Below, piece by piece: positions 357 through 17,447 of a stretch of 17,605 nt of DNA (within the stretch, counting starts at the first letter, position 1; each line of letters begins with the position of its first letter). The position numbers and the translations under genes were made by a program. Origin of the DNA: a virus (Duplodnaviria > Heunggongvirae > Uroviricota > Caudoviricetes); the IMG/VR virus record IMGVR_UViG_2675903413_000004, positions 1 through 17,605 of that record; one strand, given 5' to 3'. Under the pieces are notes generated by a model. That model was not told the origin of the DNA. It did no database searches and saw nothing but the letters and a program-made list of their open reading frames with translations.

Positions 357-377
357 ATGCAATAATCCTATCAAGGA
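357..377. repeat. Left copy of imperfect direct repeat (candidate prophage attachment-site core)
   Basis: ATGCAATAATCCTATCAAGGA (357-377) versus ATGCAATCATCCCTCAAGGA (17428-17447): blocks of 7+4+7 identical bases, one mismatch and one 1-2 nt indel. Both copies lie immediately outside the last phage-like gene at each end. Confidence 0.35.
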
Positions 378-380
378 ACT

Positions 381-410
381 GAGAAAACGACAAAACCCGC
401 GTTTTGCGGG
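381..410 (-). terminator. Rho-independent terminator closing the late (tail) operon
   Basis: On the - strand: stem CCCGC (410-406), loop AAAAC, stem GCGGG (400-396), followed by TTTTGTCGTTTTCTC (395-381). Begins 13 nt after the stop of the 424..984 gene. Confidence 0.5.
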
Positions 411-423
411 CTGTCTGGAATGG

Positions 424-984
424 TCAGGCAATGATGTTCTGGTACTTGCTCCGGGTCTGTCCGGCCTTTGTCGCCGTCCGGGTAAACGCTCCGGCATTGG
501 TTGGCGTACCAACACTGGGGTGCGAATGACTCGCACATTGCTGCGCCAGCTCTGCCAGTATCTGGATCAGCAGCTGCGTGTTGTCTGCAATCTGGCTGTC
601 TGTAACCCGAACCAGAATCACATCCCAGTCGATATCCGGTTGCCGTTCTAACAGCTCCACATAACCAATTCCCAGCCGTTCAAAGATATTGATAAACCCC
701 TCTACTGAACCGGCATCCCGCGCATTCACGAAGGCAAAAGCCACGCGTTTGCGAAACAGGGTCAACGGTTCACCATCAAAGCGGGTGATATCCCGGTCAT
801 AAGCCAGCAGATTCAGTAATGCCGGTGTACACGTCAGCGGATCAAACTGGTTCATTGGCCAGGTAACCCAGCCGTAAACCTCAGCCCAGAACCGCCGCGC
901 CGTGTTCAGCAATTTCCCCGGTTCGCCTTTATTCATCCAGGAAGGCAAGACCATCCCGGCCAGCTTTTTCATGAACTCATTCAT
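424..984 (-). CDS. Baseplate/tail protein, P2 gpI / Mu gp48-like
   Basis: ORF track 424..990 (TTG start); in-frame ATGs at 984 and 972. N-terminal region (FDPLTCTPALLNLLAYD...) resembles the conserved DP..C.P.LL.LA pattern of P2 gpI-type tail proteins as recalled; follows a baseplate-J-like gene. Start is uncertain. Confidence 0.5.
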   Translation of the reverse strand: MNEFMKKLAGMVLPSWMNKGEPGKLLNTARRFWAEVYGWVTWPMNQFDPLTCTPALLNLLAYDRDITRFDGEPLTLFRKRVAFAFVNARDAGSVEGFINIFERLGIGYVELLERQPDIDWDVILVRVTDSQIADNTQLLIQILAELAQQCASHSHPSVGTPTNAGAFTRTATKAGQTRSKYQNIIA

Positions 985-2161
985 TCTCAATATTCACCGT
1001 CAGTGATTTCAGACGCGGCACGCTCAGTTCACTGGTAATGTCTCCCAGCGAAAATGTCAGTGATTCCGTCTGCGCAAAGGTTTTATGAATTTCCCGCCCC
1101 AGTTGCGAAAAGGAAAACCGTGAATATGGCCACGTCTTTCTGACGTCATAATCAGCATTTTCACGAAAGGCACAGCGGATCATGTTCTCAATGCCGCCCT
1201 TCAGCGTTTTCACCTCTTCGTCACTGAAGTTGTTTAGATTTTTGACATAAACAGTGACGGCCAGATCGTGAAGCGTTTCCGGCATGGGATAACACTGCAT
1301 ATCATCACCGTGCCCGTGATGTCCCAGCGTGTTGATATAGTCATTCACCGCATCCACGAACGGCGCTGATGCCACCCCACTGTCCAGTAATAAAAAGGCG
1401 TTGGCTGTTCCTGGCCCCCTCGGTGCTTCATGCTCAAAGAAAATCCGATCTATACTCAGCCCGGCAACACTGGCGATCATTGAGCGATAGACCGCATCAG
1501 TGTGGTAATTCCCCACAAGATTAAACTGATTGCGGCAACGCTCGCGCAGTTCATCATCACTTTCCTCGTCAGCCCCCGGTACGGTCAGCCAGTTTTCCTC
1601 ACTGACCACATGGCTAATACCACTGACCGCCACCGGCAGAATGCGGTAATATCCAGGCGCAAGGTTATACGCGCCCCCGGTGCCGGTGGCTTTCACCGGC
1701 AGTAATGCGCTGGCCGCACCGGAAGCGATCACCACATCCTCAGTGGTGGCCAGCTCATAAACTCGCCCGTTAATGCGTTCTGTCTGGATAACCGTCCCGG
1801 CTTTCACCGTCACCACAGCTTTTGCATCTTCTTTGAAGAAGCGGATCACCCCATGTGCAGCGCTCGCCGGTTTTGCCGTGACGTTCACCGCCCAGGCCAG
1901 CAGACGCAACATGCTCCCGCTGGCTGTGGCCACAAACATATTGGCCAGCACGGTTAACACCAGAACGTCTTTAAGCCACATCACCGGGGCAGTCACAATG
2001 GCGGTGATTAATCGCCAGAACGGTGACATTCGGGATGTATTGGTGATAATTCCCTCATCTGCTGCAATTGCATTGAAGCGTTCCCGCACTTCGGCTTCCG
2101 TTACCGGCATACCGCTGTCTTTCACCACTTCTTCAAAATCAACCTGCGGTTTTTCCGTCAT
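977..2161 (-). CDS. Baseplate assembly protein, Baseplate_J family (P2 gpJ / Mu gp47-like)
   Basis: ORF track 977..2215 starts at GTG; the ATG at 2161 forms an ATGA overlap with the upstream stop and has a GGTGG SD. Segments MFVATASGSMLRLLAWAVNVTAKPASAAHGVIRF and EESDDELRERCRNQF...VGNYHTDAVY match the characteristic baseplate-J pattern as recalled. Confidence 0.6.
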   Translation of the reverse strand: MTEKPQVDFEEVVKDSGMPVTEAEVRERFNAIAADEGIITNTSRMSPFWRLITAIVTAPVMWLKDVLVLTVLANMFVATASGSMLRLLAWAVNVTAKPASAAHGVIRFFKEDAKAVVTVKAGTVIQTERINGRVYELATTEDVVIASGAASALLPVKATGTGGAYNLAPGYYRILPVAVSGISHVVSEENWLTVPGADEESDDELRERCRNQFNLVGNYHTDAVYRSMIASVAGLSIDRIFFEHEAPRGPGTANAFLLLDSGVASAPFVDAVNDYINTLGHHGHGDDMQCYPMPETLHDLAVTVYVKNLNNFSDEEVKTLKGGIENMIRCAFRENADYDVRKTWPYSRFSFSQLGREIHKTFAQTESLTFSLGDITSELSVPRLKSLTVNIENE

Positions 2162-2487
2162 AAATCCACCTGCGCAGAGATCCCGCCAAAATCGTATGTA
2201 CTCGCGGTTACCCACAGCCGCTTCTGACTTTCTTCACTGATTTCCACCGTACCCGGCACAATGCGTTCATCATCTTCAATCAGTAATTCCATGCGGGTAA
2301 AAATATCCGCTCTCATTGTCGGGCTACGTTCGGCGATTAATTCCGTCGCTAACCCGCTTTCAATAATGGAATGAATAATGTCCTGCCCGATACTTTTTCG
2401 GTTATTACATAATTCAGGTTCATTACCGGTATTCAGAACAAAGTCACCGCCCTGAATCAGCAAGTCGATATAGAGAACATTACTCAT
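2158..2487 (-). CDS. Small tail/baseplate protein between tape measure and baseplate J (possibly gp25/W-like wedge); function uncertain
   Basis: ORF track 2158..2505. The ATG at 2487 has an AGGAG SD 8 nt upstream and an ATGA overlap with the tape-measure stop (2484-2487). Product about 109 aa. Assignment is by position only. Confidence 0.4.
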   Translation of the reverse strand: MSNVLYIDLLIQGGDFVLNTGNEPELCNNRKSIGQDIIHSIIESGLATELIAERSPTMRADIFTRMELLIEDDERIVPGTVEISEESQKRLWVTASTYDFGGISAQVDL

Positions 2488-16267: not shown

Positions 16268-16268
16268 A

Positions 16269-17309
16269 ATGAGCGTTCGTAAACTTCCTACAGGCGAATG
16301 GATCGCCGACTTCTACACCGTCAACCGCAGTAATGGCAAGAACGGGAAGCGTATACGTAAAAAATTTGCCACGAAAGGGGAAGCCCTGGCATTCGAAAAC
16401 CATACGCTTCAGAAAGTAGACGCAGCTCCGTGGCTGGGTGAAGGGAAGGACAAGCGAACTTTAATAGATCTGATAACAATGTGGTATGAACGCCACGGCG
16501 TAGCTTTGAGCAATGGCGAAAAGCGTAAAAATGCTATGACCTGGGCGGCGGAATGCATGGGATTCCCGCTGGCCACAGAATTTAATGCCCAGTTGTTCAC
16601 AGCCTACCGCGCTAAAAGGCTGGATGGGCATTATGCCCGTACCAACAGAGTATCTAAGGTTTCCCCGAAAACTATGAACCTTGAACATGCTTACTTCCTG
16701 GCTATGTTCAACGAGCTGAAACGGATTGGTGAATGGTCAGCACCCAACCCACTAGAAAACGTCAGACAGTATCGTACTGATGAAACCGAAATGGCTTTCC
16801 TCACTACCGAAGAAATTGATCGGCTTTTACTGGAATGCAAACGAAGTAAAGTTAAGTACCTAGAATTAGTTGTCAAAATCTGCCTTGCTACCGGCGCAAG
16901 GTGGAATGAGGCGGCAACGCTGAAAAGCTCCCAGATCGCCGGGGGTAAAGTCACGTTCGTCAAAACCAAAGGGAAGCGCAACAGAACAATTCCCCTTGAT
17001 GATGAACTTCTGTCCGAATTACCTGAAACAAAAGGCGCTCTGTTCCCCAAGCCCTGCTACAACGCTTTCCGCTCTGCTCTGGAACGTGCAGGCATTGAAC
17101 TCCCCTCCGGCCAGCTTACCCATGTACTGCGCCATACATTTGCCAGCCACTTTATGATGAACGGCGGAAACATTCTGGTTCTGCAAAAAATTCTCGGCCA
17201 CGCTGACATCACTATGACAATGCGTTATGCCCATTTCGCCCCAAGCCACCTTGAAGATGCCGTGCGACTTAACCCCTTAAAATGTCGCAAAAATGTCGCG
17301 ACAGCTTAG
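16269..17309 (+). CDS. int: Tyrosine-type site-specific integrase (P2/186 Int family)
   Basis: 346 aa; C-terminal catalytic signature ..ATGARWNEA.., HVLRHTFASHF, LGHADITMTMRYAHF (R...HxxR...Y); almost contiguous with cI, as in the 186 cI-int operon. Confidence 0.9.
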   Translation: MSVRKLPTGEWIADFYTVNRSNGKNGKRIRKKFATKGEALAFENHTLQKVDAAPWLGEGKDKRTLIDLITMWYERHGVALSNGEKRKNAMTWAAECMGFPLATEFNAQLFTAYRAKRLDGHYARTNRVSKVSPKTMNLEHAYFLAMFNELKRIGEWSAPNPLENVRQYRTDETEMAFLTTEEIDRLLLECKRSKVKYLELVVKICLATGARWNEAATLKSSQIAGGKVTFVKTKGKRNRTIPLDDELLSELPETKGALFPKPCYNAFRSALERAGIELPSGQLTHVLRHTFASHFMMNGGNILVLQKILGHADITMTMRYAHFAPSHLEDAVRLNPLKCRKNVATA

Positions 17310-17344
17310 AAATACTGCCGAATACTCACAGATATTAACTAACG

Positions 17345-17373
17345 TAACTTATTGATAACACTGTAAGTTATTG
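17345..17373. repeat. Direct repeats in the int-proximal arm (possible Int arm-type or IHF sites)
   Basis: TAACTTATTG (17345-17354) and TAAGTTATTG (17364-17373), 9/10 identical, in the AT-rich region between the int stop and the candidate core. Confidence 0.25.
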
Positions 17374-17427
17374 TTTTTCGTAGATAGTTGATGCTTTATA
17401 ATATAGCCTGTGCTATATCTGTATGTA

Positions 17428-17447
17428 ATGCAATCATCCCTCAAGGA
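17428..17447. repeat. Right copy of imperfect direct repeat (candidate attachment-site core)
   Basis: ATGCAATCATCCCTCAAGGA; see the left copy at 357-377. Lies 118 bp past the int stop. Confidence 0.35.

Follow-up and report, generated by a model that had tools for sequence, protein, structure and literature searches.

The stretch of DNA analyzed here (the window) comprises 17,605 bp from contig CXXP01000012.1 of the Escherichia coli draft assembly GCA_001269265.1, and its gene families were assigned by Pfam and PHROG profile scans. The first gene (1–333, minus strand) encodes the 110-residue hypothetical protein WP_000787654.1 (phrog_13843, E value 1.9e-47), a phage cargo protein whose translation, read by eye, shows a hydrophobic, signal-peptide-like stretch at the N-terminus. 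A terminator-like hairpin (394–412, minus strand; by consensus scan only) lies downstream of a spike stop codon. The tail genes that follow, all on the minus strand, encode a baseplate J/gp47-like protein (977–2161; PF04865, E value 5.5e-29), a DUF2590 protein of the tail/baseplate block (2158–2487; PF10761, E value 1.3e-45), the tail tape measure protein (2484–4451; PF10145, E value 1.7e-22), a tail assembly chaperone (4639–4896; PF10963, E value 9e-37), a tail tube of the HP1 Orf24 family (6021–6476; PF10772, E value 8e-64), a DUF2586 tail sheath (6473–7600; PF10758, E value 5e-135) and a gpS-like tail completion protein (7597–8304; phrog_26, E value 4e-33, with a weak match to PF05069). An annotated DUF6890 ORF overlapping the chaperone gene (4448–4642, minus strand; phrog_7050) is probably its frameshift extension. 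Between chaperone and tube genes lies a lysis cassette (4883–6011, minus strand), recognized through PF04550, PF13539, PF23793 and phrog_1152, which consists of a Rz1/LysC-like o-spanin (4883–5071), a Rz-like i-spanin (5043–5381), an M15 endolysin (5381–5722) and a holin (5709–6011).

Two gene remnants meet beyond the tail block. The first is a 3' fragment of a gpR-like tail terminator gene (8301–8558, minus strand), identified by PF06891 and by alignment, which encodes the C-terminal 85 of 168 residues; its start codon and N-terminal half are gone, and it covers positions 87–132 of the profile vs 2–132 in the intact gene. The second is the 3' part of the large terminase gene (8559–8926, plus strand), which retains about the last 121 of 591 codons and matches only positions 82–154 of PF17289, so that none of the ATPase domain and little of the nuclease domain is left. 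The portal protein (8923–9984, plus strand; PF04860) is full length and identical to WP_040080380.1 of intact prophages, and is followed by an Ogr/Delta zinc-finger late activator (9981–10304, plus strand; PF04606, E value 9e-20).

The replication and early genes are on the minus strand. A small ORF of 68 codons (10278–10484; phrog_698) is preceded by a LexA-box-like site (10507–10526, minus strand) that agrees with the consensus at 17 of 20 positions, is the sole such match in the window and had no counterpart in any of 200 shuffled sequences; a consensus scan also placed promoter-like hexamers at 10576–10549. The product, encoded where phage 186 has tum, is a candidate antirepressor under SOS control. 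Next come a P2 GpA-type replication endonuclease (10604–12625; PF05840, E value 6e-105) and a Dam-type N6-adenine methyltransferase (12622–13482; PF02086, E value 1e-65), which also matches the PADLOC orphan methyltransferase model. The early operon (13473–15550), delineated by the Pfam and PHROG scans, encodes DUF2732 (13473–13706), two hypothetical proteins (13774–14175 and 14175–14603), Fil (14612–14785), CII (14795–15298) and Cox/Apl (15329–15550). On the plus strand a 186-type CI repressor (15686–16267; PF07022/PF16452) and a tyrosine integrase (16269–17309; PF24624/PF00589) complete the phage genes. No Rfam family was matched in the window, and PADLOC detected no defence system among the deleted and cargo genes, apart from methyltransferase models matching Dam.

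The gene content reported in the first-pass annotation, i.e., tail, portal, switch, replication, late activator and lysis genes, is thereby recovered by profile scans. The same scans found no capsid, scaffold, small terminase, spike or fibre gene in the window, in agreement with that annotation; the shortening of the large terminase was confirmed by comparison with the intact gene, and the last 44 residues of the spike persist only within a fusion described below.

The right attachment core, the 11-bp TATAATATAGC, was located at 17397–17407, in the mntS promoter region, by comparing the window with the unoccupied K-12 site and the intact prophage region of strain XYEH3934, which served as alignment reference (L001, NZ_CP087564.1). 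The host gene mntS itself (17477–17605, plus strand, by annotation) lies outside the element. The matching attL core is at 2585–2595 of L001, about 1.4 kb beyond the start of the window; since the ORF at 1–333 is phage cargo, annotated also in the intact prophage, position 357, where the left end had been drawn, is not the boundary of the element.

Nucleotide identity to phages ESSI2_ev015, ESSI2_ev040 and ESSI2_ev129 is 95.5–96.6% over 83% of the window, with shared gene order, and the taxonomy line of ESSI2_ev015 reads Peduoviridae; Quadragintavirus. The publication on these viable relatives describes four ESSI-2-related temperate isolates from infant gut viromes (PMC6969025). Closer relatives are found in seven complete E. 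coli genomes, where an intact prophage of ~28.9 kb likewise occupies the mntR-mntS site and includes a 27.7-kb intact version of the span covered by the window (strains XYEH3934, 1919D3, CM2010-0578/1, 23CRST047/049, CUWW10 and Z142-3). The six of these that were fetched have the full set of head and tail genes and differ from the window by 1–6 SNPs over 17.4 kb. Capsid, scaffold, both terminase subunits, spike and fibres, which make up the full virion set of Quadragintavirus, are present in these otherwise identical prophages and incomplete or missing in the window. The 8.2-kb chromosomal flank of the window is identical to that of CM2010-0578/1, which is likely to be a sibling strain with the prophage intact. 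It is therefore very probable that the element, inserted between mntR and mntS of E. coli, arose from an already known temperate phage of the ESSI-2-like type (Peduoviridae, genus Quadragintavirus) and has become defective. As in other defective (cryptic) prophages, essential genes have been lost from an identifiable intact phage while the att sites still flank the element.

Alignment with L001 resolves the window into three collinear blocks with one mismatch in 17,605 bp, and this mismatch is private to XYEH3934. The blocks are separated by two deletions, which together account for 10.1 kb missing relative to the intact prophages and within which gpL, gpM, gpN and gpO fall. Junction J1 (window 559/560) corresponds to the loss of 5,137 bp (L001 4561–9697), with 2 bp of microhomology (TA). 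It removed the genes for the spike, the HP1-ORF34 baseplate protein, the fibre and its assembly protein, together with one hypothetical gene and the C-terminal part of gpI. The outcome is a chimeric ORF (424–984, minus strand) that joins, in frame, the N-terminal 142 of 195 residues of a gpI-like baseplate protein to the final 44 residues of a gp5/gpV-like spike. Junction J2 (window 8557/8558) corresponds to the loss of 4,957 bp (L001 17696–22652), again with 2 bp of microhomology (TC), and took the N-terminus of gpR, the head completion, small terminase, capsid and scaffold genes, and 470 codons of the large terminase (intact gene, L001 21245–23020), together with the divergent intergenic gap between scaffold and terminase. 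An antisense ORF (8528–8860) spanning this junction is likewise chimeric and matches no family. The statement that every retained ORF is full length is thus contradicted by gpR, by the gpI fusion and by this ORF. The two junctions can be recognized by the 36-mers GCGCCAGCTCTGCCAGTATCTGGATCAGCAGCTGCG and ATCCAGTAGTTCCCTGTCTGGGAGTAGACGTTACCG. The right-hand breakpoints of both fall within the 8-mer TTATCTGG, a sharing to which a post hoc simulation assigned p ~0.015 and which could hint at a non-random break mechanism. The occurrence of two separate deletions in a prophage with almost no SNPs is a mild coincidence.

The reduced layout appears to be confined to a single strain. Among 5,426 complete E. 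coli genomes the head block is intact in 27, while neither J1 nor J2 is spanned in any; J1 had no match in genome_contigs and J2 none in metagenome_contigs. A collection of about 15 billion proteins contained the exact J1 fusion protein on a single contig. The longest contig differs between the clusters of truncated gpR (P0033, 22 contigs) and of truncated terminase (P0023, 35 contigs), so the two fragments do not invariably occur together. In strains 160-11H1, PSJ-16, Combat13F7, 573, 300709 and EcPF15, the remnants occupying this site have other endpoints and kept other modules. Because J1 and J2 are unique and the other remnants end elsewhere, the layout is not conserved, and the idea that this reduced architecture might recur across strains was not upheld in complete genomes. 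Against repurposing, the first-pass annotation had looked to a site occupied in relatives solely by full-length prophages, with a unique recent deletion here accompanied by frameshifts or nonsense mutations elsewhere. Full-length prophages and a unique recent deletion are essentially what was found; the match departs in two small respects, in that some other strains hold remnants too, and in that the damage consists of three genes cut at the junctions, with no frameshift or nonsense mutation elsewhere in the window.

The evidence supports simple and very recent decay, the reading first advanced as the most parsimonious, given near-identical intact prophages at the site and a double deletion seen nowhere else. 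In the proposed sequence of events, an ESSI-2-like phage would have integrated at the 11-bp core in the mntR-mntS intergenic region and, after lysogeny, would have suffered two independent deletions by illegitimate recombination, each across 2 bp of microhomology. One would have taken the head module, the divergent scaffold/terminase region and most of the large terminase, and the other would have cost the element its spike and ORF34 baseplate protein, its fibre together with the fibre chaperone, and one hypothetical gene. The rest of the element would be unchanged relative to the intact copies because too little time has elapsed for point mutations. The element is an ordinary broken prophage rather than a novel type of element. 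Its significance beyond annotation is slight; it is a clean case of the earliest stage of prophage decay, and two deletions of about 5 kb alongside few point mutations, with intact siblings as exact reference, might provide a data point on rates of deletion vs substitution.

Capsid formation, DNA packaging and completion of a tail are all beyond the remnant. To judge from its gene content, no infectious particles would be expected, as it lacks the genes for capsid, terminase ATPase, spike and fibre. It probably still confers CI immunity and expresses Dam and the cargo genes, and it may excise and replicate after SOS induction, because the integrase, Cox/Apl, GpA, both att sites and the small gene with its LexA box are intact. 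Gene spacing and analogy with P2 make it probable that the late promoter or promoters of the remaining tail and lysis genes have been lost: only two non-coding gaps in the late region of the intact phage exceed 20 bp, and both are inside deletion J2. A scan of the intact prophage for the P2-type late promoter TGT-N12-ACA gave matches in coding regions only and none in the scaffold/terminase gap; the deleted divergent gap contains a perfect dyad, GTTCGGT-N11-ACCGAAC, of which there is no second copy. The retained tail genes are identical to the intact copies. It is conceivable that retained genes are kept for host benefit.

The integrase, Cox/Apl, CI, GpA, Ogr, both att sites and the LexA-boxed small gene would also suit a helper-dependent, satellite-like element that still excises and replicates and is packaged by an incoming intact Quadragintavirus that supplies heads, spike and fibres, and a cos site may survive because the deleted blocks are almost entirely coding. 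We consider this very unlikely. Pfam and PHROG scans turned up none of the genes by which recurrent P4-like or PICI-like satellite lineages manipulate a helper, such as those of the Sid, Psu or capsid-redirecting type. The P2 cos sequence, which may not be that of this phage group, had no match at up to 3 mismatches, CI immunity would bar a homoimmune helper, and the genome of about 18.8 kb is ~65% of the intact prophage length. Because the layout is unique to one strain and conserved in no other genome, it is not an evolved satellite lineage, and the suggestion of helper dependence made at first inspection is not sustained.

A more elaborate proposal, to which as a whole we would give very little weight, is that the deletions were non-random, through a sequence-directed break mechanism or selection, and quickly turned a circulating phage into a non-infectious island. 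This island would be SOS-inducible, would excise and replicate, would keep immunity, Dam and cargo, and could be mobilized in satellite-like fashion by a heteroimmune relative. The observations that bear on it are the joint and exact removal of both infectivity modules and the 8-mer TTATCTGG common to the right-hand breakpoints.

It is also conceivable, if hardly probable, that the isolate truly holds an intact prophage and that an assembly artefact or mixed culture led the draft to skip two segments. The source is indeed a draft WGS assembly, and J1 and J2 are known from its sequence rather than from reads across the junctions. Against this, both lie deep within a 379-kb contig, this contig is on record for two samples, and microhomology of just 2 bp at each junction provides no repeats able to collapse an assembly. 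That the element is a repurposed contractile tail, keeping sheath, tube, tape measure, baseplate J, lysis and regulatory genes intact so as to release bactericidal tails, is extremely improbable, and the earlier tailocin-like suggestion is set aside, as the spike, the hub-associated ORF34 baseplate protein, the fibre and its chaperone are missing, gpR and gpI are truncated, the upstream region presumed to hold the late promoter is deleted, integrase, replication, portal and terminase sequences remain, and the layout occurs on one contig only.

Among known systems, the intact E. coli prophages of XYEH3934 and the other carriers are closest, with ~100% identity over the retained segments at the mntR-mntS site, the window lacking the two blocks. 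Phages ESSI2_ev015, ev040 and ev129 occupy the same site with the same gene order, at 95.5–96.6% identity over the retained segments. Cronobacter phage ESSI-2 and Haemophilus phage HP1 share the tube, sheath, DUF2590 and ORF34 families, the tail of the window being of HP1 type and not of the P2 FI/FII type; both are complete phages of other hosts with much lower identity, which for ESSI-2 is ~77% over 41% of the window. With coliphages 186 and P2 the element shares the families of CI (186 type), Apl/Cox, CII, Fil, GpA and Ogr/B, and the small LexA-controlled gene that closes the early region presumably sits where phage 186 has tum. In contrast to 186 and P2, the small ORF of 68 residues has no annotated function, and searches for P2-type cos and TGT-N12-ACA sequences gave no match in the expected places.

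R-type pyocins and tailocins resemble the window in having contractile tail genes beside a lysis cassette and no capsid genes; here, holin, M15 endolysin and Rz/Rz1 are the phage's own cassette. Unlike the window, they encode a full tail with spike/hub, baseplate wedge, terminator and fibres with their chaperone, lack integrase, replication, portal and other head genes, and occupy a fixed, conserved locus. Prophages reportedly decay by deletion, as Bobay, Touchon and Rocha are said to have described in PNAS in 2014. The cryptic prophages of E. coli, including the P2 remnant and others of K-12, have, as here, lost morphogenesis genes and kept integration, immunity and cargo functions. The element in the window differs from them in being extremely young, separated from intact copies by 1–6 SNPs; instead of a remnant of long domestication, it displays the first steps of decay.

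The element in the window is an ordinary defective prophage, derived from a known phage by two very recent deletions and specific to one strain. Its gene inventory, as given in the first-pass annotation, was confirmed by the ORF listing together with Pfam and PHROG scans. On the minus strand, HP1/ESSI-2-type genes for a contractile tail and for lysis extend from ~8.5 kb down to 0.4 kb. This block includes, at its upper end, a gpR-like fragment, a gpS-like protein, the DUF2586 sheath and the HP1-Orf24 tube; the lysis genes (holin, M15 endolysin and Rz/Rz1 spanins); and, at its lower end, the tail assembly chaperone, tape measure, DUF2590, baseplate J and a gpI-like ORF. 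At 4448–4896 (minus strand), the ORF for the chaperone and a DUF6890 ORF overlap; the latter is annotated with different lengths among genomes (84, 144 or 195 nt), which is probably explained by programmed frameshifting of the P2 gpE/E' kind. On the plus strand, 8559–10304 holds a large-terminase gene reduced to its C-terminal part, a complete portal gene and the gene for an Ogr/Delta zinc-finger activator. The 186/P2-type early operon (minus strand, 15.5 kb down to 10.3 kb) comprises Cox/Apl, CII, Fil, two hypothetical genes, DUF2732, Dam, the GpA replication endonuclease and a small terminal ORF; on the plus strand, CI and the integrase run divergently to this operon. The final 129 bases belong to the host gene mntS, and neither tRNA genes nor Rfam matches were found in the window. 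Matched exactly, the gpI-like ORF assigns the window to a 379-kb contig (locus L002) of the E. coli draft assembly GCA_001269265.1.

By megablast, seven of 5,426 complete E. coli genomes match the entire window at ~100% identity, and in all seven the match is broken into three pieces across 27.7 kb. In E. coli XYEH3934 (locus L001, the reference for deletion coordinates), the mntR-mntS interval is annotated with a P2-family prophage that is complete. It encodes the scaffold gpO, the major capsid protein, the small terminase gpM, the head completion protein gpL, gpR at full length and a large terminase of 591 aa. Beyond gpI are a tail fibre, a protein for fibre assembly, a hypothetical protein, an HP1-ORF34 baseplate protein and a spike-domain protein of 566 aa with gpV and gp5 spike domains. 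With the second deleted block as query, 27 complete E. coli genomes were found to have an intact head module. In the phage collection, ESSI2_ev015, ev040 and ev129 share 95.5–96.6% identity across the retained parts, and ESSI2_ev015 is classified as Peduoviridae; Quadragintavirus. According to the paper describing the ESSI2_ev phages, infant gut viromes yielded four temperate isolates related to ESSI-2 (PMC6969025).

Aligned to L001 by BLAST, the window falls into three collinear blocks, and a single position among its 17,605 bp is mismatched; this SNP is private to XYEH3934. At the first junction, J1 (window 559/560; microhomology TA), L001 4561–9697 (5,137 bp) is lost, and the initial 142 codons of gpI are joined in frame with the final 44 codons of the spike gene. 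At the second, J2 (window 8557/8558; microhomology TC), the loss of L001 17696–22652 (4,957 bp) reduces the gpR-like tail terminator from 168 aa to its C-terminal 85 and the terminase gene to approximately the final 121 of its 591 codons. The first-pass observation was largely right, with some statements needing correction; it had taken every retained ORF to be full length, and three of them (gpI-like, gpR-like and terminase) are shortened by these truncations. The ORF at 8528–8860 is a chimeric antisense ORF crossing J2, for which no homologues were found. The right-hand breakpoints (L001 9690–9705 and 22645–22660) share one 8-mer, TTATCTGG, and given the 2-bp microhomology both junctions can be written as TTA|TCTGG. 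A post hoc simulation put this sharing at ~1.5% by chance, and chance is the probable explanation.

The first-pass annotation raised the question whether this reduced architecture is conserved across strains; comparison of genomes shows that it is not. Queries of 301 bp across J1 and J2 were spanned in none of the 5,426 complete genomes; 22–26 genomes matched one or both query halves, never joined. A 36-mer across J2 had no match in the metagenome collection, nor had one across J1 in the species-representative genome collection, and the gpI-spike fusion protein occurs on one contig only among ~15 billion proteins. Several other strains carry remnants at the same mntR-mntS site with endpoints that differ from strain to strain: 160-11H1 (partial portal; partial GpA through integrase), PSJ-16 (pieces of spike, gpR, gpL and integrase), Combat13F7 (the stretch from integrase to Fil, with unrelated genes), 573 (spike to fibre assembly joined to a partial GpA and followed by the early region), and 300709 and EcPF15 (head genes and portal, lacking the gpS-to-gpM end of the query used for the second deleted block). 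This is the pattern expected of random deletional decay, not of a selected architecture. Simple decay, which the first-pass annotation called the parsimonious reading, is supported. In public assemblies, a truncated terminase (120 aa; cluster P0023) is present on 35 contigs and a truncated gpR (96 aa; cluster P0033) on 22, which point to further independent truncations elsewhere.

Comparison of the empty K-12 site with L001 and the window identified the att core as TATAATATAGC, with attR at window 17397–17407 and attL at L001 2585–2595. Because attL lies ~1.4 kb left of the window start and is intact in the source contig, the remnant measures ~18.8 kb, against ~28.9 kb for the intact prophage. 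The serine acetyltransferase gene and the 110-aa ORF (window 1–333) are phage cargo, as confirmed by the permuted ESSI2_ev015 record. The segment from attL to the spike gene (L001 2596–4423; in the remnant loci L004 2339–4433, L006 12741–16714 and L007 8868–11435) is a variable cargo slot, comparable to the hotspots for morons and defence genes in P2-like phages. In the window lineage it holds the serine acetyltransferase and a hypothetical protein of 110 aa whose N-terminus looks signal-like; elsewhere it carries a reverse-transcriptase-domain protein and an acetyltransferase in 160-11H1, an AIPR-family protein in strain 573, and other hypothetical genes in Combat13F7. The core sits inside the mntS promoter region (K-12 locus L003, ~4060–4095), flanked on each side by a TAGC-N4-GCTA palindrome; the two resemble MntR operator boxes. 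In the integrated state one palindrome lies beside mntR and the other beside mntS, ~29 kb apart, a separation that could change manganese regulation of mntS.

Its gene content shows that the remnant is unable to make capsids, package DNA or complete a tail. No damage affects the integrase, Cox/Apl, CI, CII, GpA, Dam, Ogr or either att site. Immunity is probably retained, and DNA damage may lead the remnant to excise and replicate. A LexA-box-like site, in agreement with the consensus at 17 of 20 positions, lies downstream of promoter-like hexamers and 23 nt upstream of a 68-aa ORF (phrog_698; 10278–10484, minus strand; whole region 10278–10526). The window has no other match of this kind, and none of 200 shuffles produced one. 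This ORF ends the early region, matching the position of tum in phage 186, and is likely to be an SOS-controlled antirepressor akin to Tum. The annotated late region of the intact prophage has only two non-coding gaps >20 bp, the scaffold/terminase divergent gap (161 bp) and the gpM-gpL gap (96 bp), both within the J2 deletion. By analogy with P_O and P_P of P2, late promoters have probably been lost both for the retained tail-lysis block and for the portal-ogr pair; motif scans provided no confirmation of this loss. In the intact prophage, the scaffold/terminase divergent region contains a perfect dyad, GTTCGGT-N11-ACCGAAC (deleted; L001 21166–21190), which occurs only once in the phage and may be a regulatory site for the divergent late promoters. 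No cos site was found in the window element, nor any match to the P2 cos sequence with up to 3 mismatches.

Against each of six intact copies, the prophage shows 1–6 SNPs in 17.4 kb, and the chromosomal flanks of these carriers (L001, L009–L013) differ from that of the source strain (L002) by 0–99 SNPs in 8.2 kb. Such near-identical prophages beside flanks of varying divergence imply that the phage has recently spread horizontally among different E. coli backgrounds. The intact-carrier strains span several continents and originate from humans, swine, chicken and wastewater. One of them, CM2010-0578/1, has a flank identical to that of the source strain and is probably its close relative.

The repurposed-element reading is not supported. 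Satellites are defined by helper-exploiting genes and a recurrent lineage, neither of which the window element shows. Tailocins have a full tail, spike and fibres included, are free of integrase, replication and head genes, and sit at a conserved locus, whereas the window element lacks the spike and fibres, carries integrase, replication and head genes, and occupies a locus that is not conserved. It is a defective member of a known phage genus.
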